Of a stretch of 64,000 nt of DNA, positions 1 through 34,643 are shown piece by piece. The position numbers and the translations under genes were made by a program. The stretch is from contig CAMJNS010000003.1 in the NCBI GenBank assembly GCA_946407375.1, forward strand, positions 15,170-79,169, in the 5' to 3' direction. The notes under the pieces are model-generated. The model saw only the letters and a program-made list of their open reading frames with translations, had not been told where the DNA came from and ran no database searches. The number at the start of each line of letters is the position of its first letter. Positions within the stretch are counted from its first letter, which is position 1. This stretch comes from an uncultured bacterium (GTDB lineage Bacteria; Muiribacteriota; Ozemobacteria; Ozemobacterales; Ozemobacteraceae).

Positions 1-1
1 T

Positions 2-3900: not shown

Positions 3901-4029
3901 GCTCCAATGGCAAGAGCGGTTATAAGCGGTCTTACTATCGCAACCTTTATATCACTTCTGATTATTCCGCTTATTTACATTGAATTCGACAAAGCTTTTG
4001 GAAGCGGAAAGGCGAAAACAAATAATTAA
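937..4029 (+). CDS. RND (AcrB/HAE1-type) inner-membrane efflux pump
   Basis: 1030 aa with 12-TM RND architecture and two large periplasmic loops. AcrB-like blocks include SVRHPIGVTMITLMVVIFG, GGVALGIGMLVDNSIVVLENI and DPFIVMTTVPLSVIG. Confidence 0.95.
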   Translation: MKLSKQSVRHPIGVTMITLMVVIFGFVSLYKLPVDLMPDMTFPMISVSATYENASPTEVETLITRPIEQAIAAVSGVEEIESSSSEGRSNVRISFAWGTNLDAATNDVRDRIDRIIKRLPDDIDRPQIRKFDSNAMPIMVLGASAELDPVKLLDLIDNQVKYRIEKIDGVASIDVMGGNQREIQVNLDINKAKALKISPEQIISRIRAENINLPAGMIESGNFEIRLRTPGEFQTVEQISRLVVGMNGQQVIRLCDVANVEDHWEKKRSVVRINDNEGVRISVSKQSGANTVNVAKAVKKEVAAINEEIPQLRLTPIVDSSKYITRSINNVSQSAILGGILAIVILQIFLANLASTTIIAIAIPVSIIATFTLMYYFGFTLNIMSLGGVALGIGMLVDNSIVVLENIFRHRENGVPIIEASIEGSNEVAMSILASTLTTVVIFLPLLFVEGVTGVMFKQLAYIVAFSLFCSMAISLTIVPMMTSIFLKNVVSKEDKATHKVGLFKRMSDAMVGIILKIQSWALNKVLTYRASTFFILGCLIAFACSLVSLMGTEFMPTADEGEVRVSIEMEEGSRLSLVDETFKKVEAIIKEKVPERDIMFTNVGGGRNSAVNKGDIRIPLKASNERKRSSAQIAAALRKDLGGIPGTVIRTREGQGMFMMRMGSGSDKVQLEIRGYDIETADALGAQVAKLIKEVPGITDVKLSREKGVPERSIIIDRDKAADQKLTINAISTFLETMMSGRSAGNLRDGSNEYKILVKATDAEYMKLDEILNMVITNSAGNPVMLRNVARLESKMGPTIIERHNQERILTLSADVEGRSLGFVIKDVQEKIKEIPLPENFAIVMTGDYEDQQEAFMELAFSFILAIFLVYMVMAIQYESLRDPFIVMTTVPLSVIGVVPILYFTGTTFNVQTFIGCIMLGGIVVNNSILLVDHMNELRRKNPDMDIIEAAKEAASNRCRPILMTASTTILGLVPLALGWGEGGEMQAPMARAVISGLTIATFISLLIIPLIYIEFDKAFGSGKAKTNN

Positions 4030-4054
4030 ATCTTTCGTTAGTATTGTCTAAGTT

Positions 4055-4094
4055 GCTACCCCAGTAGTTTTTTAACTCTGGGGTAGCATCTTTT
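4055..4094 (+). terminator. Hairpin terminator after the RND pump gene
   Basis: Perfect 10-bp stem gctaccccag/ctggggtagc (4055-4064 and 4078-4087) followed by atctttt. Confidence 0.55.
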
Positions 4095-4231
4095 AGAAAA
4101 GCTGTCTTCATTTGGGTAATTTAAGATCTTCCCCTAGTTTTGCTGGGGGAAGTGATACGTAGTGCCGAAAGGGGGTTTCTCAACAACTGCCAGCAACAAA
4201 AAATAAAAAAATTAAAATTTTTTAAATTCTC

Positions 4232-4415
4232 CGTGGATTTTTAGTTTTTCGTTTTGTCTATATTTATGAAAGCGAACAAAGAACTTCGAAAGCGGTTCTA
4301 TAAAGCATAAATAATAAATCTAAGAAATTAAATTCAGGAGTTAAAATGAGAAAAGTATTTTCAATGGCAGCACTAATGGTATTCATGAACGCAGCAATGG
4401 CTATGGCAGCTTCAG
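4232..4415 (+). repeat. 184-bp perfect direct repeat, copy 1 (promoter + 5'UTR + RBS + signal-peptide codons)
   Basis: Base-for-base identical to 15664-15847 at a constant offset of 11432. Identity ends at a4416 versus g15848. Confidence 0.95.
4235..4260 (+). promoter_or_regulatory. Candidate two-block promoter GGATT-N16-GTCTA (copy A)
   Basis: The GGATT and GTCTA blocks are conserved in all three paralogous upstream regions, while the 16-nt spacer differs in copy B. An A-run/T-run tract lies immediately upstream. Confidence 0.35.
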
Positions 4416-4537
4416 ATCAAGTAACAAACAATCGACAGGATACCTTAAGAAACGACAAGACTCAGGTAGAATTGATGGGCGACAAACATACTGGTTCTGA
4501 TAATATCGATCCCACAAAAGCAGGTGTTAGAGTATAA
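4346..4537 (+). CDS. Small secreted peptide, paralog A (63 aa, Sec signal peptide, ~40-aa hydrophilic mature part)
   Basis: AGGAG sits 6 nt upstream of the ATG. Signal peptide MRKVFSMAALMVFMNAAMAMA/AS. The C-terminal 23 codons differ from paralog B by 6 synonymous and 2 conservative changes. Own terminators follow. Confidence 0.7.
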   Translation: MRKVFSMAALMVFMNAAMAMAASDQVTNNRQDTLRNDKTQVELMGDKHTGSDNIDPTKAGVRV

Positions 4538-4571
4538 AAAGCATAAATAAATGATATAGCCAACAAAAGAC

Positions 4572-4594
4572 CACTCGAAAGAGTGTTTTTTTTT
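4572..4594 (+). terminator. Intrinsic terminator (cactc-gaaa-gagtg + T9)
   Basis: 5-bp stem with GAAA tetraloop followed by nine T, 35 nt after the peptide A stop. Confidence 0.6.
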
Positions 4595-4636
4595 GCTTTG
4601 TTGTTATTGTAATCTCTAAACTTAGTTAACAACCGC

Positions 4637-4662
4637 CTCTGAAGCAATTCAGAGATTTTTTT
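4637..4662 (+). terminator. Intrinsic terminator conserved between peptide genes A and B
   Basis: ctctgaa-gcaa-ttcagag followed by a T-run. The block aaccgcctctgaagcaattcagagattttttt recurs at 5884-5914. Confidence 0.7.
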
Positions 4663-4698
4663 GTTTTTAGCAAAATTATCTCATTTCTAATTTTATAT

Positions 4699-5103
4699 CT
4701 ATTTGTTCAAATATTTATTACAAAACTCTCTAGCTGTTATTATTTTTGTCTTTTCAAACTTTTTTAAAACCAATAAATCTTTGTCGCCACTCACTATGTA
4801 AAGAGCTCCAGAATCTTTTGCACAACCAAGAAATTTATTGTCATCCGGGTCTCTACATATTTTAACATTTGATTTAGCCGTGATTATTTTTAAAGACTTT
4901 ATCAATGGAAACAATATATCTTTTCTTAATTTGCCTTGTTTCATATCTATCATTTCATCAACGATTTCTTGATATTCTTCAACAATTTCTGTTGTTGCAA
5001 AAGCATCAAATTCTTTCTGCAAAACAGCTTCTAGTATTTTTCTTGGTTCTCCACCGAAAAACACAGCAGAAATAACAACATTTGTATCTAGAACTATTTT
5101 CAT
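4699..5103 (-). CDS. PIN-domain toxin (VapC-like) of a type II toxin-antitoxin pair
   Basis: 134 aa. N-terminal MKIVLDTNVVISAVFFGG with acidic residues spaced as in PIN domains. 4-bp overlap with the upstream antitoxin gene. Confidence 0.8.
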   Translation of the reverse strand: MKIVLDTNVVISAVFFGGEPRKILEAVLQKEFDAFATTEIVEEYQEIVDEMIDMKQGKLRKDILFPLIKSLKIITAKSNVKICRDPDDNKFLGCAKDSGALYIVSGDKDLLVLKKFEKTKIITAREFCNKYLNK

Positions 5104-5366
5104 TTCCTTTTCTTTTTTCTTACCGATTTGATTATGTTGTTAACATCGCTTTCTTTATAACCTACAGAATCAGCCCATTCTTTTGCTTCGTCTAATGTTT
5201 TAGAAAATTCTTCAGCGGTTGGAAGTCTCAAGACTTTCAGCATTACAACATCACCAGAAGTATAAACAGCCAGTTTGTCGCCAGCATCAATATTTAAATT
5301 TCTTCTAATAGCAATTGGTAAAGAAATTTGCCCCTTAGATGAAAGAGTTAATATTCGAGCGTCCAT
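5100..5366 (-). CDS. AbrB/SpoVT-family antitoxin
   Basis: 88 aa. SSKGQISLPIAIRRNLNIDAGDKLAVY is a looped-hinge-helix (AbrB/MazE) signature. Translationally coupled to the PIN gene. Confidence 0.8.
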   Translation of the reverse strand: MDARILTLSSKGQISLPIAIRRNLNIDAGDKLAVYTSGDVVMLKVLRLPTAEEFSKTLDEAKEWADSVGYKESDVNNIIKSVRKKKRK

Positions 5367-5384
5367 TTTTTTGTTTTTCCTTTG

Positions 5385-5399
5385 GTAAGAATTTCTTAC
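5385..5399. promoter_or_regulatory. 15-bp perfect palindrome, candidate TA operator
   Basis: gtaagaa-t-ttcttac lies just upstream of the RBS (AAGGA) of the antitoxin gene on the minus strand. Confidence 0.4.
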
Positions 5400-5523
5400 T
5401 TAATTATAACATAAAAATCTTAATTTCAAAATTCGTCATTACTAGAACCTTTTAAACAGCTACAATAACTACCAACTACAATAAAAACTTTCAAAAAAAA
5501 TGAAATTTTTTTTGAAAATTCGT

Positions 5524-5549
5524 GGATTTTATAAATTTCATTTTGTCTA
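5524..5549 (+). promoter_or_regulatory. Candidate two-block promoter GGATT-N16-GTCTA (copy B)
   Basis: Same blocks and spacing as 4235-4260 but with a different spacer sequence. The flanking cgtggatttt and ttttgtctatattta.gaaagcgaac are conserved. Confidence 0.35.
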
Positions 5550-5605
5550 TATTTACGAAAGCGAACGAAATAAAAATAAAGTAAATAAACTTAGGAGTAG
5601 AAAAA

Positions 5606-5800
5606 ATGAAAAAAGTATTATCAATGGTAGCATTAATGGTATTTATGAACACAGCAATGGTTATGGCAGCTTCAGATCTAGTATCAAACAAACGACAGGA
5701 TACCACCTTAAGAAATGAAAGAACCCAAGTAGAACTTATGGGCGATAAACATACTGGTTCTGATTATATAGATCCAACAAAAGCAGGCATAAGAGTTTGA
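5606..5800 (+). CDS. Small secreted peptide, paralog B (64 aa)
   Basis: AGGAG RBS. Signal peptide MKKVLSMVALMVFMNTAMVMA/AS. Mature part aligns end to end with paralog A (VELMGDKHTGSD.IDPTKAG.RV). Confidence 0.7.
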   Translation: MKKVLSMVALMVFMNTAMVMAASDLVSNKRQDTTLRNERTQVELMGDKHTGSDYIDPTKAGIRV

Positions 5801-5888
5801 AAAACAGTAAACAGACAGCGAGGTAAAAACAAGCAAATCTAAAGATTGAAAGAAAAATTGCGATTCACAAAATTAAGTAAACAACCGC

Positions 5889-5914
5889 CTCTGAAGCAAT
5901 TCAGAGATTTTTTT
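5889..5914 (+). terminator. Intrinsic terminator, same sequence as 4637-4662
   Basis: ctctgaa-gcaa-ttcagag followed by a T-run. Confidence 0.7.
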
Positions 5915-6118
5915 ATTTTAGCTTCTATTGGCGTAATATTTTTTGTTTATTTGTTATAAATACATTCACTACTTTGGTTATTATTACTTAATTCCAACAT
6001 AAATAATATAAAATCATAGTTAACAACTTAATAAATTATTCAAAGAAAGTTTTTCATGGTCTTAGAAAGACTTATAATAAAGTTAACTATCTTTTATATA
6101 TTTATAAGGAGAATTAAA

Positions 6119-6880
6119 ATGGTAGAGGAACTTCTATTTACAAAAATTGTTGATAAATCGACTCTTTATGAAGGAATAAGCATTCCTGTTGCTTATCAGA
6201 AATTTCTTTTAAGTAAAATGCATTTCTCCTTAGAAAAAGGTAGTCAGAAAAATATTAAAGTGGAAATGTGTGGATATATTTACGATGATGCTGTTATAAA
6301 GAATCAATTTTTTGATGAAGTGAAATTTCCAAATCACTCAGATTTAATACAGATTCGTTATGCTAAGCAAAGTTTACTTGCCCAAAAAATACGTGAAGTT
6401 TTTTCTGTAACAGAATATTTCGTTAATGAGTATTGGAAAAATCAAGCGGATAATAAATCACACCTTGTTATACCTGAAGACAGAAGAGAATACATTGCTT
6501 TATATGTATCAAAAGATAGAATTCGATTTGATTGTATTCCACGTAATTTAACAATAAATACTCAGTCAAAAACTGATTTTGGTGAGGAAGCACCTCAAAG
6601 AAGAGAAACAACGACTTTGGGGTTCAAAAGAAATGCAAACGTTATCGAAAAAGCAAAAGAACGTGCTTCAGGAATTTGTCAATTGTGTGGTAATCTAGCT
6701 CCTTTTTGTGATAAACAGGGATATCCATATTTGGAAGTACATCATGTAATATGGCTTTCACGTGGAGGTGCTGATAAATTAAGCAATGTAGTTGCTTTAT
6801 GTCCAAATTGCCATTCGAAAATGCATATCGTCGATGATGAACAAGATATAGCACTTTTACTAGAAAAAGCTAAGCTATAA
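6119..6880 (+). CDS. HNH endonuclease (McrA-like C-terminus) with an uncharacterised N-terminal domain
   Basis: C-terminal CQLCG...PYLEVHHVIWLSRGGADKLSNVVALCPNCHSKMH is a CxxC/HH/N/CxxCH HNH motif. Start moved to the ATG at 6119, which has AAGGAG 7 nt upstream. The N-terminal FTKIVDKSTLYEGISIPVAYQKF resembles the opening of B3/EcoRII-N pseudobarrels (weak). Confidence 0.8.
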   Translation: MVEELLFTKIVDKSTLYEGISIPVAYQKFLLSKMHFSLEKGSQKNIKVEMCGYIYDDAVIKNQFFDEVKFPNHSDLIQIRYAKQSLLAQKIREVFSVTEYFVNEYWKNQADNKSHLVIPEDRREYIALYVSKDRIRFDCIPRNLTINTQSKTDFGEEAPQRRETTTLGFKRNANVIEKAKERASGICQLCGNLAPFCDKQGYPYLEVHHVIWLSRGGADKLSNVVALCPNCHSKMHIVDDEQDIALLLEKAKL

Positions 6881-6976
6881 TATAATTCATACAGTAATTT
6901 GCTATAGAAACAATTGTTGATTTATAATCGTATTAATTCTAAAGTAATACATAAAATAAATAAGAGCTTCTGTAAT

Positions 6977-8431
6977 ATGAACTATGACGAACTAGTAAAT
7001 CTAAGACAAATGAATGTCGCTTGGATTTTGCTTCGAGCTGATAATGCCCCATTAATAATAAGTTTTCTACACAAAACTTTTATAGAGCCAAATAAAAGAG
7101 ATATAGCCAAAAACATATTAGAAAATTTACTTGAAGATGAGTTGTTCAAATTAAGAGATAGAAATCAGGATCTTTTTCCTAAAAAAGCGTCTGAATACAT
7201 TACAGATTGGCAAAAAAGTGGCTATTTAAGGAATTTTTATGTTGATAACGACGATGAGCCTCATTATGATATTTCCGCAAAGGCAGAAAAAGCCATTCAA
7301 TGGATAGACGATTTAATATCTAAAAAATTCGTAGGTACTGAATCGCGTTTAAGAACTATTTTCAGTTTAGTTGAACAAATAGTTATTGGATCTGATAGAA
7401 ACAAAGAAAATCGTTTAGAAAATTTGGAAAAGCAAAAACAAACTCTTGAAGCTGAAATAGAGAAATTGAAGGCTGGAAATGTATCTATTTTAAGCGATAG
7501 TGAAATTAAAGACAGATTTCAGCAGGTTATTTCTTTGTCTAATATGATGTTAAGCGATTTTAGAGAAGTTGAAGATAATTTTAGAAAACTAGACCAAGCC
7601 ACACGAGAAAAAATAGCAACCAGTGATGGTGCCAAAGGAGAAGTTCTAGAAACTCAATTCAAAGATTTTGATTACATTGAGTCAACCGATGAAGGAAAAA
7701 GCTTTAAAGCCTTTATGCAATTTATTATGTCGCAAGATAAAATAGACGATTTCGATGAAAAATTGGCTAAAATACTTGAAATGAAACAGATTAAAGAGCT
7801 CAAACCAGATAAAAAAATTGCTAAAATATATCGAAATTGGCAGAAAGCTGGAGAATCAACTCAAAAAATGGTTATAAAACTTACTCAAAGACTAAGTAGG
7901 TATGTAAGCCAAAATATATCATCCCAAAACAAAAGTATTGAGCGACTTATAAAAAGAATAGAAAACATGGCAATAAAACTTAAAACAATTGCTAATAACG
8001 ACAAAAATTACATGGATATAGATAAAGCAGGAATTGAATTATCTATGCCAATGGAATTACCTCTTTGGACTTCTTCTGAAAAGCCAAATATTGTTTCAGA
8101 CATTGAAATTGGCTTAGAAAATGACATAGATGATAGTGCCCTATATAATCAAGTCTTTGTAGATAAGCAATCCATAATAGATAATATTCGTAAAGCACTG
8201 AATTTAAATGAACAAACAACTTTAGGACAGGTTATAAATAATAATCCGTTAAATAAAGGTTTAATGGAGTTAATAAGCTATTTTAGCGTTGCAAGTGAAA
8301 TGCAAAACAACCGGCAAATTAATATAATTTGTGATGATTCAAGTAAAGAAGAAATAAAATGGTTAGATGAAAGTTTGCAAGCAATTCGAGTTGCCAAAAT
8401 TCCAAAAATAACAATAAGCTACGAGAAATAA
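6977..8431 (+). CDS. jetA: Wadjet JetA (kleisin-like subunit, DUF3375-type)
   Basis: N-terminal MNVAWILLRADNAPLIISFLHKTF matches the conserved JetA opening as I recall it. ~484 aa with a central coiled coil. First of four contiguous genes with JetABCD sizes and order. Confidence 0.8.
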   Translation: MNYDELVNLRQMNVAWILLRADNAPLIISFLHKTFIEPNKRDIAKNILENLLEDELFKLRDRNQDLFPKKASEYITDWQKSGYLRNFYVDNDDEPHYDISAKAEKAIQWIDDLISKKFVGTESRLRTIFSLVEQIVIGSDRNKENRLENLEKQKQTLEAEIEKLKAGNVSILSDSEIKDRFQQVISLSNMMLSDFREVEDNFRKLDQATREKIATSDGAKGEVLETQFKDFDYIESTDEGKSFKAFMQFIMSQDKIDDFDEKLAKILEMKQIKELKPDKKIAKIYRNWQKAGESTQKMVIKLTQRLSRYVSQNISSQNKSIERLIKRIENMAIKLKTIANNDKNYMDIDKAGIELSMPMELPLWTSSEKPNIVSDIEIGLENDIDDSALYNQVFVDKQSIIDNIRKALNLNEQTTLGQVINNNPLNKGLMELISYFSVASEMQNNRQINIICDDSSKEEIKWLDESLQAIRVAKIPKITISYEK

Positions 8432-8432
8432 A

Positions 8433-9056
8433 ATGACTATATCTGAAGAAGAAAAAAATAATTATAACTTTTCCAAAATACTTATAAACCTTATGAAAGG
8501 TATTGTTTATAGAGAAGATGATGTAAATATTTGGAATTATTTAGAAGATAATGAATCTCAAGTTTCTGAACACTTTAAAATAATTGGTTTACGGCTAATT
8601 ATTGATAAATCAAGAGGTTACGCTTATTTAAAGCAAATCTTATTTAACCTGGAAGAGGAACAACTGCCCAGATTAATAAGGAAACAACCTCTAAGTAGAC
8701 AAGTATCAATATTAATTGTTGTTTTACGGCAAATTGTTATAGAAAAAGAAAACTCAGGTAGTGATGATAGAATCATTGTTTCTTTTGATGATATAGCAGA
8801 TAAATATAGAGCGTTTTATCCAAATAGCAATGATGATGAAAAAAAATTCTATAAAGATTTAAAATCATATTTAAAGAAGGTTATAGATTTAGATTTTATT
8901 AGAGAATTAAAAAGTGAAGAAGATAATTATGAAATAAAACCAATAATAGTATCATTTGTAGATATGGATTGGCTTAACAATTTCAAGGACAGGTTAACAG
9001 ATGAATTGAGAGAAAACAATATAGATATTGCTGATGAAAATGAGGATTTAGAATGA
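8433..9056 (+). CDS. jetB: Wadjet JetB (KITE-like subunit, DUF4194-type)
   Basis: 207 aa acidic protein. Starts 1 nt after the jetA stop and overlaps jetC by 4 bp. Size and position fit JetB. Confidence 0.7.
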   Translation: MTISEEEKNNYNFSKILINLMKGIVYREDDVNIWNYLEDNESQVSEHFKIIGLRLIIDKSRGYAYLKQILFNLEEEQLPRLIRKQPLSRQVSILIVVLRQIVIEKENSGSDDRIIVSFDDIADKYRAFYPNSNDDEKKFYKDLKSYLKKVIDLDFIRELKSEEDNYEIKPIIVSFVDMDWLNNFKDRLTDELRENNIDIADENEDLE

Positions 9057-12000
9057 ATTACGAACAAAGCTTTTTAGAATTTGCAACAGATAATTCAACA
9101 ACAGGTTTTAGACTAGATCGTTTAGAAATACTTAATTGGGGAACTTTCGACCAAAAAGTCTGGTCTCTTTATCCCTCAAGCAGAAATATTCTAGTTACTG
9201 GTGAAATTGGTTCAGGAAAATCAACAATAGCAGATGCAATTAGTACTTTGCTTGTTCCTCCACAGTGGTTGTCTTTTAATAAAGCCGCAGGAGCAGAAAG
9301 AAGAGAGAGAGATTTAAAGTCTTATGTTTTAGGTTTCTATAAAACAGAATCTGCTGATAGTGGTCTAATAGGTAAACCAGTAGCTTTACGTGATATAAAT
9401 TCATATTCTGTAATATTGGGAGTTTTTAAAAATTCAGGATACAATCAAGTTTATACGCTAGCACAAGTTTTTGTAGCCAAACCAGAAGGTGGGCAACCTG
9501 AAAGATTTTATTTTATTTCAAGTTCAGATTTATCAATTAAAAATGATTTTTCAGGCTTTGGAAATGAAATCAAAGCATTAAAATCAAGATTAAGAAAAAT
9601 ACCTGATTCAAAAATTTATGATACTTTTCTACAATACGCTAACGATTTTAAAAGATATTTTGGAATAGATAATAATCAGGCTTTGGGTTTATTTAATCAA
9701 ACAATTTCAATGAAGTCTGTTGGAAATCTTACGTCTTTTATTCGCGAAAATATGCTTCAAGAATATGAAACGAATGAAGAAGTAAATGCAATGATTCAGA
9801 ATTACGAACAGCTTTCAAAAGCTCATGACGAAATTCTTAAAGCCAATGATCAGATAGAAATCTTAAAGAAAATATCTAATATTGGTCAAGAATGTAGCAA
9901 ATTTGAAAAAGAAATAAATGATACTGAAAATAAATTAGATGCTTTACATTCTTATATGCTAGTAAACAAAGTTTCTTTTGTAGAAAAAGAAATTAATAGA
10001 TTAAATAATGAAAAAGAAAATGTTGATCAAGAATTAAATAAATTAAAAGAAGATGAAACAAACTATAATAGTCAAGTAACAGAAATAACTACTAATATAG
10101 TTTTAAATGGTGGCAATGAGATTACAGAAATAGAAAATAAAATAAAAACTCAAGAAAAAGAACTAAATAAACGCAAAAGAAATGAGGAAGAATATAAATC
10201 TATTTTAGCTATGACAGATTTAATATTCCCCATTGATATAGCAAGTTTTGAAAATAACAAACGTCAAATTGAAACAATAAGAAATTATACAAAATCAGAA
10301 TATTCTATAAAAAATGAAGAAAAATTTAGCAAAAAGCTTAATATTCAGGTATTAAAAAACAATAAAAAACAAATAGATGATGAAATAAATTCATTAAAAG
10401 GGCGTATAAACAATATTCCACTAGAACAAATAAAGATAAGAAGTTTAATTTGTACTAAAACAGGTTTGTTAGATGATGAATTACCATTTGTTGGAGAGCT
10501 TATTCAGGTAAAAGAAAGCGAAAAAGCATGGCAAGGAGCTATTGAGCGAGTCCTTCATGGTTTTGGGTTATCTCTATTAGTATCTGATTCTGTATATTCT
10601 AAAGTATCCAAAGCTGTTGATGAAACAAATCTTAAAGGTAAAATTGTTTATTTCAGAGTAAAAAACTTGGAAAACAGAATAAGTAACTATAATATTTCAC
10701 CAAATTCTATGGTTAGGAAAATAAAGGTAAAGCCAGATTGTTGGGCTTATGATTGGTTGCAAAATGAATTAGAAGAAAGATTTAATTATATATGTTGTGA
10801 AAACTTAGAATTATTCCAAAAAGAAAAATATGCAGTTACAATAAATGGTCAGGTTAAACATGGTGGAGTAAAGCATGAAAAAGACGATAGAAAAGCAATT
10901 AACGATATTTCTACTTATATTTTAGGCTGGAATAATAAAGAAAAAATATTAAATTTAAAAGCTGAATCTGATAAAATTCAAGAAGAAATAAATTCTTTAT
11001 TATCTGAAATAAAATTACTAGATAATAGATTAAAATTATTAGAACTTAAAGACAATAAATTGCATGAACATATAAAATATAGTAGCTATGAAAATATAGA
11101 CTGGAAAAGCATTGATTTAGAAATAAAAGAGTTACAAGAAAGATTAGAAGAGCTACATAAATCTTCTGACAAACTTAATAAGCTAAGAGAACAAAAAACA
11201 AAGCTAGAAGAAAAAATAAATGAGATAAAAGTTATAATTAATACAAAAACTAAGAAACAAGGCGGAATTGAAAATAAAATAAGCGAATTAAATAAAATAT
11301 TAAACAAATCTAGTGATGAAATAAATTCTAATAATGACTTCCCCAAGACAGAATATTTAGAAAGTTGTTTAAGTGAAATAATAAATGATATTAAAGAAAT
11401 ATCATCATTAGAAGAGTTTGATAGACAAGAAAGAATTTTAAACAAAAAATTTAATGATTTGAAATCAAATCTTCAAAAGGATTTTAGTGATAAAAAGAAT
11501 ATATTAGTCAAAGAAATGAGTGTATTTAAAAATAAATATGTCTTAGAATCAGCAGAACTGGGGCAAGAATATCAATATCTTTCTGATTACAATAAATTCC
11601 TTTTAAGGCTACAAAATGATGATTTGCCTAGATTTGAAACAAGATTTAAAGATTTACTGCATCAACAAACAATTCAAGGAATTGCTTCCTTTAATTCAAA
11701 GTTAAACAGAGATTCTGAAGAAATAAAAGATAGAATTAGAGCTATAAATGAGTCGTTAAAAGAAATTCAGTATAATGAAGGTCGTTATATAAGAATTGAA
11801 GTTATTTCTAATAATGACAAAGAAATAAATGATTATAAAAGCGATTTACGAAATTGCACAAACAATTCATTAAATTTTTCTGATGACGAATATTATAATG
11901 AACAAAGATTTGAAGCCGTTAAAGTAATTATAGACAGATTAAAAGGTCGAGAAGGCTTTATTGATGCAGATAAAAAATGGCGTTTAAAAGTTACTGACGT

Positions 12001-12433
12001 TAGAAATTGGTTTAATTTTGCTGCTTCTGAAAGATATAAGTCTGATGACAGTCAGGCAGAATATTACAATGATTCTACAGGAAAATCCGGAGGACAAAAA
12101 GAAAAGCTTGCATATACTATATTGGCGGCGGGATTAGCTTACCAATTTGGTTTAAGAAAAATAGGCGAAACCAAATCAAGAAGTTTTAGGTTTGTTGTAA
12201 TTGATGAAGCTTTTGGTCGTGGAAGTGAAGAATCAGCCCGCTTTGGATTAGAACTTTTCAAAAAACTGGATTTACAGATAATGGTTATAACACCTTTGCA
12301 AAAAATACACGTCATAGAGCCATATATAGACAATGTGGGTTTTGTGGCTATCAGCGACAACAGGTCTAGAATTCGTAATTTAAGTATAGAGCAATATAAA
12401 GAAGAATATAATGAAAGAACTACAAAACAGTAA
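9053..12433 (+). CDS. jetC: Wadjet JetC (SMC-like ATPase)
   Basis: 1126 aa. N-terminal Walker A GEIGSGKST, a very long K/E/N-rich coiled-coil middle, then C-terminal signature SGGQKEKLAYTILAAGL and Walker B FRFVVIDEAFGRGS. Confidence 0.9.
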   Translation: MNYEQSFLEFATDNSTTGFRLDRLEILNWGTFDQKVWSLYPSSRNILVTGEIGSGKSTIADAISTLLVPPQWLSFNKAAGAERRERDLKSYVLGFYKTESADSGLIGKPVALRDINSYSVILGVFKNSGYNQVYTLAQVFVAKPEGGQPERFYFISSSDLSIKNDFSGFGNEIKALKSRLRKIPDSKIYDTFLQYANDFKRYFGIDNNQALGLFNQTISMKSVGNLTSFIRENMLQEYETNEEVNAMIQNYEQLSKAHDEILKANDQIEILKKISNIGQECSKFEKEINDTENKLDALHSYMLVNKVSFVEKEINRLNNEKENVDQELNKLKEDETNYNSQVTEITTNIVLNGGNEITEIENKIKTQEKELNKRKRNEEEYKSILAMTDLIFPIDIASFENNKRQIETIRNYTKSEYSIKNEEKFSKKLNIQVLKNNKKQIDDEINSLKGRINNIPLEQIKIRSLICTKTGLLDDELPFVGELIQVKESEKAWQGAIERVLHGFGLSLLVSDSVYSKVSKAVDETNLKGKIVYFRVKNLENRISNYNISPNSMVRKIKVKPDCWAYDWLQNELEERFNYICCENLELFQKEKYAVTINGQVKHGGVKHEKDDRKAINDISTYILGWNNKEKILNLKAESDKIQEEINSLLSEIKLLDNRLKLLELKDNKLHEHIKYSSYENIDWKSIDLEIKELQERLEELHKSSDKLNKLREQKTKLEEKINEIKVIINTKTKKQGGIENKISELNKILNKSSDEINSNNDFPKTEYLESCLSEIINDIKEISSLEEFDRQERILNKKFNDLKSNLQKDFSDKKNILVKEMSVFKNKYVLESAELGQEYQYLSDYNKFLLRLQNDDLPRFETRFKDLLHQQTIQGIASFNSKLNRDSEEIKDRIRAINESLKEIQYNEGRYIRIEVISNNDKEINDYKSDLRNCTNNSLNFSDDEYYNEQRFEAVKVIIDRLKGREGFIDADKKWRLKVTDVRNWFNFAASERYKSDDSQAEYYNDSTGKSGGQKEKLAYTILAAGLAYQFGLRKIGETKSRSFRFVVIDEAFGRGSEESARFGLELFKKLDLQIMVITPLQKIHVIEPYIDNVGFVAISDNRSRIRNLSIEQYKEEYNERTTKQ

Positions 12434-13616
12434 AGACATAAAAGAAGAACTTAATAAAGTTTGGAATAAAGGCTTGATTTTGTGTCAAAAATTAAGCATT
12501 AACAAAGATCAAAGAGTCATAGAATTTCCTTATAAAATAAGACTTAGACAGCCTGCATCAAAAGATAGAGCTGATATTTCAAATTATAATACAATTAAAG
12601 ATTGGTGCAAGCACTGGAAAGATCAATATGATTTATTTGGCAAGCAAAAACTTAATATAAGCATTGAATATATGCCGATTAATGACAGAATTTTAGGGAA
12701 ACAGGAACTTCCTGCGTATATTGTGGTAAATGATATAAATAGCTTCATACATTATATAAAAAAAGAAAAAGAGATTAAACAATTTGAAGAAATAGTAACG
12801 GTTATTTTTGATGAATGTTCTAATCTCCTTAATTTAATGAATGATAAGCCTTTCGATTTTTTGAAATACGATTCAAAAGAATGGCACAAAATTATACAAG
12901 TATCTGTTTGGATAGCTAACAATCCAAATCCAAATATTTATTTAAGAGAATTGGAAATTCCTAATGTTGATACAAAATTTATAGAAAAGCATGATGGAAT
13001 TTTGAAAAAAGTAATAAATTTTCTTCTTAACAAAGATGAAAAAGATTTTGCTACGAATAATTTTGAAGTACGCTATGGATTCAAAAGAAAGCCTGTAACA
13101 GTTCATTTTCGTATTCTTGACAAAGATTTAGCTATAAATGGCTTAACGGATTTAGAAATCCCTATTGAGGATTTTGCTAGATTAAATATTTCTGTCAAAA
13201 AAGCATTTATAATAGAAAACAAGATTACAGGGTTGTCTTTCCCAAATGTAAAATCAGCAATAGTTATTTTTGGTCTTGGTTTTGGGCTAGATAGACTTAA
13301 AAAATGCGGTTGGCTGAATAATTTGGAATTATATTATTGGGGTGACTTAGATACAAACGGTTTTGTTATGCTAGACCAGTTCCGTTCTTATTTTCCAAAA
13401 GCCAAATCAATGCTAATGACTTCAGAAATTGTTAAAGAGCACAAAGATATGTGGGTTAAAGAGGAAAAACAATCTATTAGAGAGTTAACTCATTTAACAG
13501 CTGATGAAGCAAATACCTACAAAGAATTAAAAGAAAACAAACACACCAACAATTTACGCTTAGAACAAGAACGAATTAATTTTTCTTTTGTAAAAGAATT
13601 TTTAAATAGTCTATAA
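12411..13616 (+). CDS. jetD: Wadjet JetD (Toprim/topo-VI-like nuclease subunit)
   Basis: 401 aa and overlaps jetC by 23 bp. C-terminal YYWGDLDTNGFVMLDQFR is a Toprim DxD motif, as in JetD/MksG. Confidence 0.8.
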   Translation: MKELQNSKDIKEELNKVWNKGLILCQKLSINKDQRVIEFPYKIRLRQPASKDRADISNYNTIKDWCKHWKDQYDLFGKQKLNISIEYMPINDRILGKQELPAYIVVNDINSFIHYIKKEKEIKQFEEIVTVIFDECSNLLNLMNDKPFDFLKYDSKEWHKIIQVSVWIANNPNPNIYLRELEIPNVDTKFIEKHDGILKKVINFLLNKDEKDFATNNFEVRYGFKRKPVTVHFRILDKDLAINGLTDLEIPIEDFARLNISVKKAFIIENKITGLSFPNVKSAIVIFGLGFGLDRLKKCGWLNNLELYYWGDLDTNGFVMLDQFRSYFPKAKSMLMTSEIVKEHKDMWVKEEKQSIRELTHLTADEANTYKELKENKHTNNLRLEQERINFSFVKEFLNSL

Positions 13617-13709
13617 ATAATACTATTTTTTACGTTTGGTTTTAAAGGTGGATTAGTTATGGTTGATGAAATTTCTAATCGATCTTATTGTCTTTTCAAT
13701 TCTCAATTC

Positions 13710-15413
13710 TCATTTTACAACAGCTACTCGGCAGCGCTTTTTATAGCAGGCTATGACAAACTTTCTGACTACATAAGTATCTTCGTCATCGAAGATTTTG
13801 ATATATCGATTGTTTTCGATTTGCTTTATTCCCTCGTCAAGAGCTTCCTGGAATTTTTTGGGGCTTTCTGCGTATTTGAGTTCTATTATTATGCCAATAG
13901 TATAGCTTGGAGTGTAAAGAATAAGGTCAGGATAGCCGTAACCAGATTCTTTGTTTGATTCAACAATAAGTTTCTTGTTGTTTGGGGTTAATAAGCCTAG
14001 CAGAAGACCATGGTAGAAGTTTTCCTTGTAATCTTTCTTCGCCATACTGTCTCTGACACTGATAGACTGCTCCAGAATTTCAGTAAAAGCTTTTTCAACT
14101 TTTTCTGCATTTCCATCATATAAACCATCATAGAGTTCATTCATAAGAGGCTGTTTTTCTATGAAAGAATCTTTCATCCATTCCATAATCTGATCTTCAT
14201 AAAGAACTCTTATTTCTCTATTGGGAATTCTTAGACTGAAAGTGTCGTTGCTTTCTCGGTCGGTAAAGGTAAGATAGCCCGTAGAAAAAAGAACGCTCCA
14301 GATATTGTCTGTCTTTTTATACAAATCTCTGTAGGTAATTTCCTGCTTAATCTTTTTAGTGATTGTCTCGCCAGCAACCAGGCTTTCAATCTCTCTTTTG
14401 GTTGAGTTGTCAGCTTCTTTTAAGAATTTGATTATTATGTCGTTTCCGCTGGTATTTGCCCAGTAAGGTTTTGGAAAAACATTTATATCTGTATCTAGTT
14501 GGCTACAGAAAAGTATTACATCCCATGGGCAATAGACTTCTTTTTTCCCGAATCTATAACCATCATACCATTTTTTTGCATCGTCGAATCTAGAAGAAAC
14601 TTTGTAGTAATCGAACATTTCTCTAACTTCGTCTTCTGTGAAACCAAAAAATTCGGAAGCTTCATTATCTGCAATAGAAAATACGTTGAAATTATTTACT
14701 CCAGTAAAAATGCTTTCTTTGGCTATTCTCAGGCAACCAGTAAGCACAGCCATTTCTAAATATGGATTTGTTTTGAAAGTGTTATTGAACATTCCCCTTA
14801 TAAGAGAAATCATTTCGTTGAAATAACCATTGTTTTCCGCTTTATCTAAGGGAACATCATATTCGTCGATAATGAAAACTGTCTTTTTGCCGTAATGTTT
14901 GTATATTAGTTCAGAAAGAATTCTGAGGCTTTTGGTAATTAGATCATTTTGTTTTTCTTTATCGTATTTTTCTATATTTTTTATACTTTTAAAAGTATCT
15001 TTTTCTTCATCGTTTAATTTTTCACTATTAGATAAATCATTAAAAGAGCGAACAGCATCTAGAACCAGTCCCATTAGATGGAGTCTTGCGGATTCAAAAC
15101 TGTTTCCTTCAACGCCTTTTAAAGTCATAAAAATAGTAGGAAACTGGTTCTGCCATTCTTCACAAAGTGTTTTGTTCTCAGATATTTTCAAGCCATTGAA
15201 TAATTCTGGATTGCCACCCATTCTTAAAAATTCGTAAAGCATGGTCATGTTAAGAGTTTTGCCGAAACGTCTTGGGCGGGTGAATAGATTTACATCACCC
15301 TTTTTCTCTTTCAGATATTCTATTAACCCTGTTTTATCAATATAATAAGAATGGTCGTTTATTAGTTTTTCAAAAATATCTGTTCCTATTGGTAATGGCT
15401 TTTTATTGGACAT
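13710..15413 (-). CDS. AAA-ATPase-like protein with C-terminal PD-(D/E)XK nuclease domain (AAA-ATPase_like + PDDEXK_9 architecture)
   Basis: N-terminal PIGTDIFEKLI...YIDKTGLI...FTRPRRFGKTLNMTML is the family signature. The C-terminus has YPDLIL...IIIELKY, a D...ExK motif. Confidence 0.8.
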   Translation of the reverse strand: MSNKKPLPIGTDIFEKLINDHSYYIDKTGLIEYLKEKKGDVNLFTRPRRFGKTLNMTMLYEFLRMGGNPELFNGLKISENKTLCEEWQNQFPTIFMTLKGVEGNSFESARLHLMGLVLDAVRSFNDLSNSEKLNDEEKDTFKSIKNIEKYDKEKQNDLITKSLRILSELIYKHYGKKTVFIIDEYDVPLDKAENNGYFNEMISLIRGMFNNTFKTNPYLEMAVLTGCLRIAKESIFTGVNNFNVFSIADNEASEFFGFTEDEVREMFDYYKVSSRFDDAKKWYDGYRFGKKEVYCPWDVILFCSQLDTDINVFPKPYWANTSGNDIIIKFLKEADNSTKREIESLVAGETITKKIKQEITYRDLYKKTDNIWSVLFSTGYLTFTDRESNDTFSLRIPNREIRVLYEDQIMEWMKDSFIEKQPLMNELYDGLYDGNAEKVEKAFTEILEQSISVRDSMAKKDYKENFYHGLLLGLLTPNNKKLIVESNKESGYGYPDLILYTPSYTIGIIIELKYAESPKKFQEALDEGIKQIENNRYIKIFDDEDTYVVRKFVIACYKKRCRVAVVK

Positions 15414-15663
15414 ATCTATGTTCCTGCTTTTGTTTTATAGATTTATTCTAATAGGAAATCTTGTTTTTAGCAAGATGTTGAGAATTGAGAGATATGAGAC
15501 CATAACTTGAGATATAAGATTAAAGTAATTGTTGTTGTCAATTTTTTGAAGCTTACGCTTCTCTTGTTTTTGTTGTAGTAATTTATCGATTTATTTCAAA
15601 CTTTTGATTGCTTGAGAACTAAACAATCCTCTTATCTCTCTTCTCTAAAAAAAAATTTTTTAG

Positions 15664-15847
15664 CGTGGATTTTTAGTTTTTCGTTTTGTCTATATTTATG
15701 AAAGCGAACAAAGAACTTCGAAAGCGGTTCTATAAAGCATAAATAATAAATCTAAGAAATTAAATTCAGGAGTTAAAATGAGAAAAGTATTTTCAATGGC
15801 AGCACTAATGGTATTCATGAACGCAGCAATGGCTATGGCAGCTTCAG
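15664..15847 (+). repeat. 184-bp perfect direct repeat, copy 2
   Basis: Identical to 4232-4415. Confidence 0.95.
15667..15692 (+). promoter_or_regulatory. Candidate two-block promoter GGATT-N16-GTCTA (copy C)
   Basis: Lies inside the perfect repeat, at the same position relative to the ATG as copy A. Confidence 0.35.
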
Positions 15848-17664
15848 GTCTTGTCTCCTACAACAGACAGGATGTCACCTTTAAGTATGGCAAGACTCAG
15901 GAAAACGTGACCTGTATTCAGGATGCCAAGGATGAAAAGCAGTGGTACTACGTATCCAACAAGCCAAGACTTGCCGAAAGCAAGAATGGCGATCCTATGA
16001 TGATGCTGGTTTCCTACCAGAAGAATTCAAAAGCAGGTGTTAAGAATGACGGCGGTATCCTCCAGTGTGGTATCAACCTCTCTCTTCCTGCAGATGCAAT
16101 TCCAACTCTGAGAAAGGAACTTGCAAAGACAGTCGGTGTTTCTGACAGCAAAATCAAGCTTGCTCCACTTGATATGAAGAACGCCAAGCTTATGGTCTAT
16201 GCTCCCGGCGGAGATCTCATGGGTGACAAGCTTACAGCCCCAGAAATCGGTCCAAGCTTCGCCAACGAATGTCTTCCAATACAGATGAATCTCAACAATC
16301 TCGGTGTTCCTGTTATAGAAGCTTTGATCAAAGGTACAGGCGGATTACAGGTAGTATATGTATTTGACTATGACGCACTAACTCCTGAATATTCTGTAAA
16401 AGTCACAGCTAACTACGACAAGGCTTTTGAACACTTCAGCCACGATTCAAAAACCTCTGTATCCGCCAAGAAATGGTTTTTTGCTGGTGCCAGTTCAGAT
16501 GTAAGCGTTACCACTGTAAGAGAAAAACTCCAGCAGTCAGGAGCACTGAAGATTGAATCCATCGGCGGTGAAAAGCTTACTGATGAACAGATCGACAAAC
16601 TCACCCAGCCTGTTATTGAAAAACTGATGAACGGTATCTATGAAATCGAAACTCCTGAAAAGATAGACCCCGCAAAATCAGGCGATCCTAAGGAAGTTAA
16701 GACAGCCTGGATCAATGTAAGCACCAATATGGCATTCAAGAGTGTAAAGACTCGTAAGACCGGTGAATTTGTATACGACTTCAGAAAACGCTACATCGAA
16801 ACCAGAAAGACAACTGTCGGCGGAATTATGAGTCTTGCCGGTTACACTCAGGCTCAGAGAGATGCTGCTGTTCAGACTGTTGATCCAACCTACTGGAAGA
16901 ATGCTTTCTACAGTCTGCCAACTATCAGTAAGTCCTTGAACGGTATTGATGAAATGACTGTAACTGTAAACTTCCTCTACAAGGGCAAACAGGCAGAAGG
17001 AACCGAACAGCAGCTTGCCAAATGGACCAAGAAGGAAGGCTGGGTTGACGCTAAGAAGGAAGAATGCGTAGGTCTTGAATTCCCACTCAAATACTTCTAT
17101 GACAAGTATGCAAAGAACAACAGCAGATTCGCAGACGACATCTCCTATCAGCAGAATTTCGAAGTAACCTATATGGAAGGCAACAATACCAAGGTTAAGA
17201 AGTTCTCTACTACAGTTCCTGCTTTCACAGGCGAAATCCCGATAAGCACTCCGATGGTCGGCGTAACCTACATCGAACTCAATGCTGATGAAGAAGACAT
17301 CACCTGGGACAAGGCAGATTACGAAGGCGGAGAATTCGACGGTTTGAAATCCAATCTTACCAAGATCGGTGTTAAGATGGAATCCAAGAACCCCGGCAAC
17401 AAAGGCACTGCAACTTTGACAAGCAAGAACACCTCAGCAGGTTTCTGGTTCGACAATCTCTTCGACAAGAAGACCGGCACCTACTCAGTTCCACAGGTTT
17501 CTGCAACATATACATTCTATAATACCAAATTAGCAAAAGCTATGGGTACTAAAGACAATAAAACTATAGTTGTAGAAAGTGACGATGCATTGAGCGAAAG
17601 CACAAGCATAACCTTTATGAATGACAGTTATATGCCAGTTGAAAAACCAGCATCCTACAAGTAA
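15778..17664 (+). CDS. Secreted 628-aa protein of unknown function, predicted highly expressed
   Basis: Signal peptide identical to peptide A. Mature N-terminus SGLVSYNRQDVT is homologous to peptides A and B. Codon usage is strongly C-ending (tac, aac, aag, atc, ttc, ctc) like tuf and unlike its neighbours. A strong terminator follows. Confidence 0.85.
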   Translation: MRKVFSMAALMVFMNAAMAMAASGLVSYNRQDVTFKYGKTQENVTCIQDAKDEKQWYYVSNKPRLAESKNGDPMMMLVSYQKNSKAGVKNDGGILQCGINLSLPADAIPTLRKELAKTVGVSDSKIKLAPLDMKNAKLMVYAPGGDLMGDKLTAPEIGPSFANECLPIQMNLNNLGVPVIEALIKGTGGLQVVYVFDYDALTPEYSVKVTANYDKAFEHFSHDSKTSVSAKKWFFAGASSDVSVTTVREKLQQSGALKIESIGGEKLTDEQIDKLTQPVIEKLMNGIYEIETPEKIDPAKSGDPKEVKTAWINVSTNMAFKSVKTRKTGEFVYDFRKRYIETRKTTVGGIMSLAGYTQAQRDAAVQTVDPTYWKNAFYSLPTISKSLNGIDEMTVTVNFLYKGKQAEGTEQQLAKWTKKEGWVDAKKEECVGLEFPLKYFYDKYAKNNSRFADDISYQQNFEVTYMEGNNTKVKKFSTTVPAFTGEIPISTPMVGVTYIELNADEEDITWDKADYEGGEFDGLKSNLTKIGVKMESKNPGNKGTATLTSKNTSAGFWFDNLFDKKTGTYSVPQVSATYTFYNTKLAKAMGTKDNKTIVVESDDALSESTSITFMNDSYMPVEKPASYK

Positions 17665-17673
17665 GGAGGAAAA

Positions 17674-17714
17674 TCAGGAAGCCTCTCGGCGCAAGCCGGG
17701 AGGCTTTCTGGTTT
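17674..17714 (+). terminator. Strong intrinsic terminator
   Basis: caggaagcctctcggc-gcaa-gccgggaggctttctgg gives a ~16-bp GC-rich stem with GCAA loop, followed by tttt. Confidence 0.75.
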
Positions 17715-18023
17715 TAGGTATTGATGGTATAACTCACATTAACATTGAAGATTTTCTTTTGCATAAAAAAGATCTATTTCTGTCTTAAGAGTTTAGCTAG
17801 ATAGGCTATTCTAAAGCCTCTTCTTAGTGGTATTACAGCAATACATCCATCCAGAAAATATTAAATTAAAAATAACTCAATCAAATTTATAGATAAAGCA
17901 AGACTAAGGGGCTGCAATGCGGTTAGCGTTTTGTATATTGAGAAATCGGCTTTAACAATCTTAATAATTATTAAATTGCGCGAATGTTCGGTTGTGTTAT
18001 AATAAAAAATCAGGAGTAGAATT

Positions 18024-30032: not shown

Positions 30033-30194
30033 ATAAAAATCTGTACCCTTTAATATAAATTATAATCAAAAAGTGTCAAGTAAGCAATAATTTGTTCAGG
30101 ATAAAAGAAATATTGAGTAAAAAGATTGATTTTTCCCCTGAAAACAAAAAATATATCTTGTAAAGAGTTTATATTTTGGTTATCTTTTAGAATT

Positions 30195-33358: not shown

Positions 33359-33372
33359 ATATATCTAGAAGG

Positions 33373-33545: not shown

Positions 33546-33557
33546 CTTCCTAGAACC

Positions 33558-34574: not shown

Positions 34575-34619
34575 AGAGGTAAGAGAATTGTTTAGACTAC
34601 AAACAATTCTCTTACCTCT
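34575..34619. repeat. 19-bp perfect inverted repeat (hairpin) with CT-rich tail
   Basis: agaggtaagagaattgttt - agactac - aaacaattctcttacctct, followed by aatctctaatctcttatctct. Lies between two minus-strand genes. Confidence 0.8.
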
Positions 34620-34643
34620 AATCTCTAATCTCTTATCTCTATA

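Follow-up and report, generated by a model that had tools for sequence, protein, structure and literature searches.

In a 64,000-nucleotide (nt) stretch of genome from an uncultured rumen Riflebacterium, referred to throughout as the window, an efflux-pump operon harbors a block of about 14 kb in which two different genes begin with the same 184 bp. One of them codes for a small secreted peptide of 63 amino acids (aa; peptide A) and the other for a secreted protein of 628 aa, with defence genes lying between them. The shared 5′ module is of the type native to the 628-aa gene, and in peptide A it is fused to a peptide-type body. This identity was probably produced by recent homologous recombination or gene conversion between paralogous modules, with the 628-type sequence as source. 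The cargo between the two copies is composite, island-free alleles exist in relatives, and the locus is a variable defence hotspot in which paralogous modules have probably undergone homologous recombination with each other. Related contigs and loci are denoted by L numbers, orthologous proteins by P numbers.

A perfect repeat at two gene starts

The elements bearing directly on the repeat are the following.

4181-4231, + strand: U_AB, an A/T-rich low-complexity tract with a periodicity of about 7 nt
4232-4415, + strand: repeat copy 1, a 628-type 5′ module (46-nt core, long leader, GAAA-loop hairpin, ribosome-binding site and 23 signal-peptide codons) joined to a peptide-type body
4346-4537, + strand: peptide A, 63 aa, secreted; open reading frame (ORF) with terminators (hairpin plus T-run) at 4572-4585 and 4637-4654
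5462-5919, + strand: peptide unit B, with U tract, diverged short-leader module (core 5521-5566), peptide gene 5606-5800 and terminator 5889-5906
~15612-15663, + strand: U_C, a C/T-rich tract
15664-15847, + strand: repeat copy 2, the identical module in its native gene, forming the 5′ end of the 628-aa gene
15778-17664, + strand: 628-aa secreted protein gene, no Pfam match

Segments 4232-4415 and 15664-15847 are identical base for base, and the identity breaks off at the adjoining base on both sides. A preliminary description of the stretch had already equated these two segments, and the exact 184-bp match bears this out. The repeat scan grouped the pair as a 210-nt family of 96% identity, with a third, diverged copy starting near 5492/5521. 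The pair is the sole long perfect repeat in the window, the remaining dispersed repeats being 76-90% identical, and the 46-nt core (CGTGGATTTT..TTTTGTCTA.AT..AYGAAAGCGAAC) occurs three times as against no expected occurrence in shuffled sequences.

In each copy, upstream sequence and a leader are followed by an AGGAG ribosome-binding site and the first 23 codons. With the ATG at repeat offset 115, the repeat extends 23 codons plus 1 nt into the ORF. These features support the earlier reading of the repeat as a module reaching from a putative promoter to the signal peptide. Past 4415 and 15847 the genes for peptide A and the 628-aa protein remain homologous at about 65% identity. Further duplications connect the two peptide units, namely the body (4442-4585 versus 5705-5848, 74%) and the terminator (4613-4667 versus 5865-5919, 89%). 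In the range 3900-18100 no Rfam family was found at E values up to 1, and a riboswitch or known leader RNA as the reason for the conserved core was therefore rejected. Likewise, a phage-borne origin of the module is unsupported, as its pattern is absent from the viral contigs of IMG/VR.

The module is native to the 628-aa gene

For the 628-aa protein 22 homologues were detected, all on Riflebacteria-type contigs. Their usual home is a secretin cluster (L001, 236-12734; L002; L003, 5373-15547; L039, 1136-7957) with the order Big_1 protein, 141-aa protein, secretin, 577-aa distant paralogue, 628-aa gene (present once or twice) and TIG/NHL protein (about 1200 aa). The 628-aa gene of the window is located away from such a cluster, inside the RND operon. 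The orthologues P0001 (93%) and P0003 (85%) carry the same signal peptide (..MVFMNAAMAMAAS / MNAAMAMAAS), and the upstream core together with the long leader also precedes the 628-aa orthologues in L001, L037, L039, L044 and L046. From these two observations it follows that the 184-bp module is native to the 628-aa gene.

The protein itself is predicted to be secreted and rich in β-structure. Comparison of its reasonably confident AlphaFold2 model (predicted local distance difference test score 78) with the Protein Data Bank gave no fold match, with template-modelling scores of at most 0.11 and generic Ig/FN3-like noise only. The secretin/628-aa cluster may represent an undescribed secretin-associated surface system.

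The leader contains a hairpin (4280-4300 and 15712-15732) with a stem of 7 bp and a GAAA (or AAAA) loop, which is also present in L037, L046, L041, L001, L039 and L044. Two base pairs of the stem covary between orthologues (GAACCGC/GCGGTTT, GAATCAC/GTGATTC, GAATTAC/GTGATTC); the version in the window has one mismatch and no match in Rfam. Its probable role at the 5′ end is stabilisation or regulation.

Peptide A is a chimera

In order to compare the modules, 21 copies from 628-aa genes and peptide units were aligned. All 628-aa genes in the alignment have the long leader and an MR.. start, and the 628-type coding diagnostics (codons MRKV/A8/A16) are found in repeat copy 1. The 13 other promoter-bearing peptide units, including unit B, have a leader shorter by about 40 nt and the codons MKKV/V8/T16; among all 14 such units the 628-type module is thus confined to peptide A. 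A private variant, TTTCGTTTTG, is common to copies A and C, the two repeat copies, and is found in no other aligned copy. After GCAGCTTCAG (4415) peptide A turns peptide-type and resembles peptide B, whereas the 628-aa gene stays orthologue-like. This switch at 4415 identifies peptide A as a chimera and the 628-type sequence as the source. Donor and recipient are assignable from the outgroups as well, since the module matches P0001, P0003, L037 and L046 in its long leader and signal peptide and is unlike that of the 13 other promoter-bearing units. The peptide of L050/L053 is a second mosaic with 628-like codons 24-41, and such exchanges therefore recur.

Two further assignments were considered and dropped. 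The long leader is not exclusive to 628-aa genes, because promoter-less second tandem units carry its 3′ half, which is present in the tandem-pair units L047 unit 2 and L051 unit 1; the claim is accordingly limited to promoter-bearing units and to the coding diagnostics. Similarly, U_C had been taken as native to 628-aa genes (as in L037) and U_AB as peptide-type, but in the wider alignment both tract types accompany both gene types. A U_AB-type tract also lies upstream of peptide B and of the 628-aa gene of L046, and the U_C type lies upstream of the 628-aa gene of L037 and of the peptides of L051, L052 and L054. Consequently, the U tracts cannot polarise the event.

Low-complexity tracts with a period of about 7 nt are observed just upstream of the putative promoters at 4181-4231, 5462-5520, 15612-15663 and 34601-34641, in L039 (5870-5940) and in the tail after the 628 stop codon of L046 (reverse strand). 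Examples are CAACAAC TGCCAGC AACAAAA, CTCTTAT CTCTCTT, GGTAAGT GGTAAGT GGTGGGT and CAGTTTT CAGTTCT CAGTTTT. Equivalent positions in different genomes are occupied by tracts of differing sequence types.

At the 3′ edge of the repeat the identity falls from 100% to about 65% between 4415 and 4416, while on the 5′ side the flanks are unalignable (U_AB versus U_C). The contrast between the perfect pair and the diverged third copy, on which the preliminary description had drawn, points to recent recombination or conversion.

A conserved family of small secreted peptides

Scanning metagenomes with the core pattern yielded 15 contigs, which together with the window contain 14 complete peptide genes, 13 of them distinct (L050 and L053 have the same sequence). 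All 14 encode 63-64 aa and end at the same stop position. The family follows the pattern MKKV.SMVALMVFMNTAM.MAASD.VSNNRQDTTLRNDKTQVELMGDKH..DPTKAG.RV and is represented at 4346-4537 and 5606-5800 of the window and in L040, L045 and L047-L054. Units 80-93% identical to peptide unit B occur in L040, L042, L045 and L047-L054, and each peptide unit closes with a hairpin-plus-T-run terminator.

Peptides A and B share 80% aa identity; in alignments with the 628-aa proteins of the window and of other genomes they correspond to residues 1-41. The body of peptide A is nearest to the peptides of L049 and L054. The C-terminal ..TKAGVRV of the peptides may echo ..SKAGVKN near residue 85 of the 628-aa protein. 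For 12 peptide genes (66 pairs, Nei-Gojobori method) the ratio of nonsynonymous to synonymous divergence, dN/dS, is 0.36 in the mature part, which together with the fixed stop indicates real genes under purifying selection. The peptides therefore do not represent by-products of a duplication. The proportion of synonymous differences, pS, is threefold lower in the signal part (0.075, codons 1-23) than in the mature part (0.227, codons 24-64), which points to recurrent homogenisation of the 5′ module.

As judged from the alignments, the family derives from the first ~41 codons of the 628-aa gene and is dispersed over variable, defence-rich regions of rumen Riflebacteria. In other contigs the peptide units lie mostly beside accessory or defence genes: a type I restriction-modification specificity subunit (HsdS) and DUF1016/YhcG nucleases in L042, L047 and L050, GmrSD in L043, an AAA_14/DUF4143 ATPase in L054, an ECF sigma factor in L049, and DUF3990/DUF3791 pairs in L045, L048, L050, L051 and L053. 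L053 and L054 have a heavy-metal ATPase flank in common and differ in cargo, so that peptide units reside at more than one locus.

The block and its genes

Every ORF of 60 aa or more within 4030-18023 was scanned with Pfam and PADLOC. Apart from the elements given above, the block and its flanks contain the following features.

131-940: MFP gene, preceding RND
937-4029, + strand: RND (AcrB-type) efflux pump gene; Pfam ACR_tran 2e-255; 96% aa identity to L004; left conserved flank
~4004-18007, no strand: whole block of ~14 kb, inserted where RND and OEP adjoin in the ancestral operon
4030-4180, + strand: spacer with two G+C hairpins, missing from L046 and unmatched in any fetched locus
4699-5103, - strand: PIN toxin; Pfam PIN_3 3e-21
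5100-5366, - strand: AbrB/MazE-type antitoxin; Pfam MazE_antitoxin 2e-8
5935-6032, + strand: framework spacer segment, with 80-90% matches at the equivalent position in L050, L051 and L053
6056-6880, + strand: HNH endonuclease, 274 aa; Pfam HNH 4e-11; PADLOC mREase_IV PDLC03656 4e-21
6914/6977-8431, + strand: jetA; Pfam DUF3375 3e-121; PADLOC JetA1
8433-9056, + strand: jetB; Pfam DUF4194 1e-40; PADLOC JetB1
9053-12433, + strand: jetC, SMC-like ATPase; Pfam AAA_29 and SbcC_Walker_B 6e-22/1e-21; PADLOC JetC1
12411-13616, + strand: jetD; Pfam DUF3322 and Toprim-like JetD_C 2e-52/7e-32; PADLOC JetD1
13710-15413, - strand: AAA-ATPase_like and PDDEXK_9 accessory gene, 567 aa; Pfam PF09820 1e-37, PF08011 1e-11
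15490-15581, + strand: element X, including a hairpin at 15548-15561
18024-19715, + strand: OEP (TolC-like) outer-membrane efflux protein; Pfam OEP 7e-36; 89% aa identity to the L004 gene directly after RND; right conserved flank

The gene content described earlier (toxin-antitoxin (TA) pair, HNH nuclease, JetABCD, AAA/PD-(D/E)XK gene and the others) is confirmed by these matches. The antitoxin gene lies upstream of the toxin gene with a 4-nt overlap, as in type II TA systems, and the pair is predicted to be one (PIN/VapC-like toxin, AbrB/MazE-fold antitoxin). JetA1, JetB1, JetC1 and JetD1 are the best PADLOC matches of a complete type I Wadjet operon (JetABCD, 6914-13616). The C-terminal domain of the HNH protein resembles type IV methyl-directed restriction enzymes, the PDLC03656 match covering residues 182-265 only. 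PADLOC gave no match for the 567-aa AAA-ATPase_like/PDDEXK_9 gene.

The two scans of the block revealed no integrase, transposase or other recombinase, in line with the preliminary description. There are no tRNA genes within 20 kb of the block, and a tRNA-targeting island was rejected for this reason. A site-specific or transposon-like element, in which the module copies would be att sites or target-duplication ends served by a recombinase encoded elsewhere, is thus left as a barely credible explanation. Direct repeats do surround an AT-rich defence cargo, the 46-nt core seems invariant enough for a protein-binding site, and a YhgA/Rpn-like (Transposase_31) gene adjoins the Jet cassette in L056-L059. 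Against such an element, no recombinase is found in or adjoining the block, 184 bp far exceeds known target duplications, the repeat ends at the limits of paralogue homology and not at those of the cargo, cassettes vary independently within the framework, and the module is a functional gene 5′ end in secretin clusters that contain no island.

The Jet region had been described as AT-rich, and this is correct: the guanine-plus-cytosine (GC) fraction is 0.26-0.30 in the Jet genes, as compared with 0.37 in RND, 0.33 as window mean and 0.44 in the 628-aa gene. As an indication of foreign origin it is weak, since 49-55 kb is equally AT-rich and the 0.44 of the 628-aa gene is a family trait, found in orthologues relative to their own loci as well. 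A windowed GC and k-mer analysis had been proposed as a check; in it the block stands out no more strongly than 39-44 kb or 49-55 kb, and the tetranucleotide deviation of the Jet region is no greater than that of these two segments. Because the deviation is matched elsewhere in the window, composition was not used as evidence of recent foreign origin.

History of the locus

Relatives were found by a genome scan with the RND protein, followed by BLAST. OEP comes immediately after RND in L004, L007 and L029 as well as in over ten Riflebacteria that are more distant, and this contiguity is, judging from its distribution, the ancestral arrangement. In L004 the two genes are separated by 15 bp; window 1-4001 corresponds to L004 8506-12506 and window 18012-19705 to L004 12526-14219. 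Relative to L004 the insert (~4004-18007) takes in the 628-aa gene, too, and no repeat is found at its boundaries with L004 (~4004 and ~18007).

The last codons of the window RND gene are replaced after ..KAFG (~4004), reading ..KAFGSGKAKTNN before the stop as opposed to ..KAFGTKKD in L004. The RND C-terminus of L046 (..KAFGSGKLKAEN, stop) resembles this derived form and not that of L004. In L046, 24 bp and a U tract separate RND from the long module with its 628-aa gene; the nt identity to the window is 87%. Given the shared derived C-terminus, L046 and the window descend from a single insertion of the 628-aa gene, and L046 is without the island. The sequence after its 628-aa gene is unlike that of the window, and L046 could represent the state either before gain of the island or after its loss. 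The empty site that had been predicted was therefore recovered in part, as the arrangement RND-module-628 exists in L046 but the similarity does not continue beyond the 628-aa gene.

Altogether three allelic states are observed: RND-OEP, RND-U-module-628 (L046) and that of the window. In L005 (4392-11058) and L006 (10979-20972), with RND identities of 92% and 91%, RND is followed not by OEP but by genes for FGE-sulfatase-domain and repeat proteins; the site is hence unstable and was rearranged several times in the rumen clade. The same core flanks, RND and OEP, are found in relatives with variable content or none, and the content of the window is rich in defence genes (type I Wadjet, type IV-REase-like HNH, PIN/AbrB TA), as in a defence hotspot. 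An exact-protein look-up of the window 628-aa, RND and OEP proteins returned no record.

The cargo is a mosaic

An independent sample contains a 100% match to JetA. The contig concerned, L055, equals window 5885-10148 at 99.93%, thus representing the same strain in another sample, and breaks within the terminator of unit B. A relative at 89% is present in L056-L059, and the next-best JetA is only 44% identical. L056-L059 share with the window only 6899-13621, which is exactly JetABCD, at 88% nt identity. Where the window has HNH and AAA/PDDEXK beside Jet, these contigs have a YhgA-like (Transposase_31) gene and a UPF0175-like gene. In the window and in L055 the HNH gene is positioned 34 bp upstream of jetA. 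As it is missing from the 88% Jet cassette, it is a neighbour and not a component of Wadjet. L056 carries a YhgA-like (Transposase_31/PDDEXK) gene and a gene for 133 aa (247-1602) where the window has HNH (6056-6880), so that differing nuclease-type genes adjoin the same Wadjet operon.

The other segments recur in other combinations. L043 matches the window at 94-95% in the AbrB gene and the region upstream of it (95% to 5367-5447), and has the order AbrB (- strand), AbrB upstream region, GmrSD, X, U, short module and peptide. L051 has the order peptide, terminator, DUF3791 cassette, 5935-6032 segment, X, U_C, short module, peptide; the order in the window is PIN/AbrB (- strand), unit B, 5935-6032 segment, HNH-Jet-AAA, X, U_C, long module, 628-aa gene. 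Element X measures about 90 bp, contains the GAAGCTTACGCTTC hairpin and is situated 120-400 bp upstream of peptide modules and beside accessory cassettes. Its copies in related contigs are the following.

L043: 260-351
L045: 2439-2505
L047: 5012-5075
L048: 2414-2480
L049: 1265-1352
L050: 4356-4402
L051: 1760-1821

Element X is absent from the seven other 628-aa loci and belongs to the island framework. The 11.4 kb between the repeat copies had been taken as a single cargo. This is not supported, as Jet alone recurs with other flanks and the framework holds other cassettes. From its layout the region is best described as a multi-slot variable island punctuated by peptide units, and not as an 11.4-kb element.

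The independent contig L055 also bears on an assembly artefact, in which the repeat would be a collapsed node with two incoming and two outgoing edges and the true arrangement would be RND-module-628-OEP plus a separate island molecule or locus, or a strain mixture. With 184 bp the repeat exceeds common k-mer sizes and single short reads, the alternative pairing is exactly the arrangement of L046, and related short-read contigs do break at such repeats: the start of L055 falls within the terminator of unit B, and three contigs (L037, L044, L046) are about 2 kb long. This explanation is nevertheless very unlikely. The interior is independently confirmed by L055, a 64-kb contig that places both copies implies spanning information in the assembler, and the alternative leaves an 11.4-kb circle devoid of a replicon. 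Moreover, two identical modules exist in either resolution, so that the biological finding stands.

Probable recombination between the modules

Recombination between gene-start copies of the module is sufficient to account for the repeat, and thus no new kind of mobile element is needed. We infer that the short-leader module usual for peptide A was replaced by the 628-type module through homologous recombination. Non-reciprocal gene conversion, with the 628-aa gene as donor and peptide A as recipient, could have brought this about and would account for both the patch and its direction; alternatively, a crossover within the module could have linked the island to the 628 locus before the copies were homogenised. 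In all scenarios that were built, the module would have to be the site of homologous recombination, and one step or more would have to be non-reciprocal.

Several observations weigh against this account. The 5′ edge of identity coincides with the end of alignable homology, and the pattern of a perfect patch in diverged homology is hence seen at the 3′ edge only. A conversion must carry the heterology of about 40 nt in the long leader across. A sigma-70 scan showed no strong match within the core, and its putative promoter role is read from conservation and position. The relatives compared are other species or strains of 81-90% nt identity and do not provide an empty site of the same strain. 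The junctions spanning the repeat rest on one assembly, L055 covering the interior only. Furthermore, the flanks are reciprocally chimeric: RND-U precedes peptide A, as it precedes the 628-aa gene in L046, and X-U_C precedes the 628-aa gene. This reciprocity is better explained by a crossover or an integration than by pure conversion.

Such an integration would be a Campbell-type gain, in which a circle (X-U_C-module-peptide A...TA...peptide B...HNH-Jet-AAA) enters an L046-like RND-U-module-628 locus by a single RecA crossover; the direct repeat would arise at insertion, and the island might exit in the same way. L046 with its same derived RND end has exactly the pre-insertion or post-excision arrangement. 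X-U_C, located here before the 628-aa gene, occurs elsewhere only in peptide/accessory contigs and at none of the seven other 628 loci. The interval drawn as a circle is a regular two-peptide framework, and L051 shows the order peptide-cargo-X-U_C-module followed by another peptide. However, all 13 other promoter-bearing units are of the short-leader type, and a crossover with a typical unit of this kind yields two different hybrid modules instead of two identical long ones; conversion or a pre-arranged donor would still be required. In addition, genes for replication, transfer or a recombinase are missing from the interval, the composite nature of the cargo is demonstrated, and an 11.4-kb circle bearing Wadjet would itself be a substrate of Wadjet. 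Gain by this route is accordingly considered rather unlikely, and recent recombination or conversion from the 628-type module is retained as the probable origin of the identity.

The same homology would also permit loss. RecA-dependent recombination between the copies, which are 11.4 kb apart, would delete the interval and leave an L046-like RND-U-module-628 arrangement with an intact 628-aa gene, removing the body of peptide A, the TA pair, peptide B, HNH, Wadjet and AAA/PDDEXK. Wadjet cleaves small circular DNA, and the excised 11.4-kb circle would be such DNA. There are chromosomal TA loci that stabilise islands, and by analogy the enclosed TA pair may counter-select loss of this one. A more far-reaching and rather doubtful proposal is that the module together with the 64-aa peptide gene serves as a portable homology anchor, dispersed copies of which would let rumen Riflebacteria excise, swap and re-insert defence cassettes across loci and strains through general recombination, recombinase-free. 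In that case the peptide, a miniature of the N-terminus of the 628-aa protein, might also have its own function, for instance as a signal or secretion decoy, which would explain the selection that keeps the anchors intact.

Other features of the window

A dispersed repeat of about 180 bp is present at 33370-33549 and 44311-44489 (83-90% identical) and in related contigs, namely in L052 (1003-1081, by a peptide unit) and L056 (14-64, by the Jet cassette); it could be a MITE-like (miniature inverted-repeat transposable element) or terminator-type element. An ORF of 563 aa (28341-30032, - strand) without Pfam match contains degenerate tandem repeats of 42-66 nt (29079-29618) that are rich in codons of Ser/Thr/Asp type, and adjoins a type II/IV secretion ATPase gene (30126-31859). 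At 49451-54884 three tandem paralogues of about 600 aa with a GC fraction of 0.25-0.27, two of them with PMT_2 glycosyltransferase matches, share an internal similarity of 162 nt (64-73%); compositionally they are as deviant as the Jet region.

Comparison with known systems

The literature found comprises general defence-hotspot papers and nothing specific to Riflebacteria islands. The nearest category is that of integrase-less defence islands and core hotspots located between conserved genes, such as the core defence hotspots of Pseudomonas aeruginosa (PMC10250203), in combination with concerted evolution of paralogous gene starts. In common with these hotspots, the present locus has variable defence cargo and no mobility genes at a fixed site between core genes (here RND and OEP), relatives with different or no cargo, and a turnover attributed to homologous recombination. 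It differs in that the island is punctuated by copies of a promoter-signal-peptide-peptide gene, one of which is identical to the 5′ end of the flanking 628-aa gene and would open an internal route to precise deletion, and in its host phylum, the uncultured Riflebacteria. Phage-defence elements of Vibrio (Hussain et al. 2021) are reportedly a further example.

With islands made by integrases and bounded by attL/attR the locus shares a direct repeat around the cargo, one copy of which belongs to an intact gene, and recombination would restore a single gene. Contrary to such islands, it has no integrase, the 184-bp repeat is located at the 5′ end of a gene and not at the 3′ end, the other copy drives a conserved gene of its own, and the limits are those of paralogue homology. 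With no recombinase, no att-type boundaries and a cargo that is not one unit, the block does not have the properties of an integrative element. For annotation this calls for caution, as a perfect repeat around AT-rich cargo is no sure sign of a mobile element and what looks like cargo may be a mosaic.

Concerted evolution by gene conversion is known from tufA/tufB, and exchange with partial gene copies from pilE/pilS of Neisseria. The present case resembles these in the perfect patch within diverged paralogues, in partial copies that exchange with a full gene, and in the depressed synonymous divergence. It differs in that a non-variable promoter, leader and signal peptide are exchanged with no logic of antigenic variation, the partial copies each come with a putative promoter and a terminator and code for a conserved peptide, and the transfer would have proceeded from the full gene to the partial copy.

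The type I Wadjet anti-plasmid system itself is ordinary, with four genes in canonical order and strong PADLOC and Pfam matches. New is an island punctuated by a conserved promoter/signal-peptide/peptide unit that stems from a lineage-specific 628-aa gene. It reveals that an uncultured rumen phylum has a conserved family of secreted peptides adjoining cassettes of restriction, Wadjet, GmrSD and TA-like type, and it shows how a defence island without mobility genes can be gained, lost and rebuilt, with gene-start copies framing an operon-internal hotspot as a precise RecA handle for deletion and exchange. Current views of defence-island turnover are not overturned hereby; rather, a concrete and testable variant is added to them.

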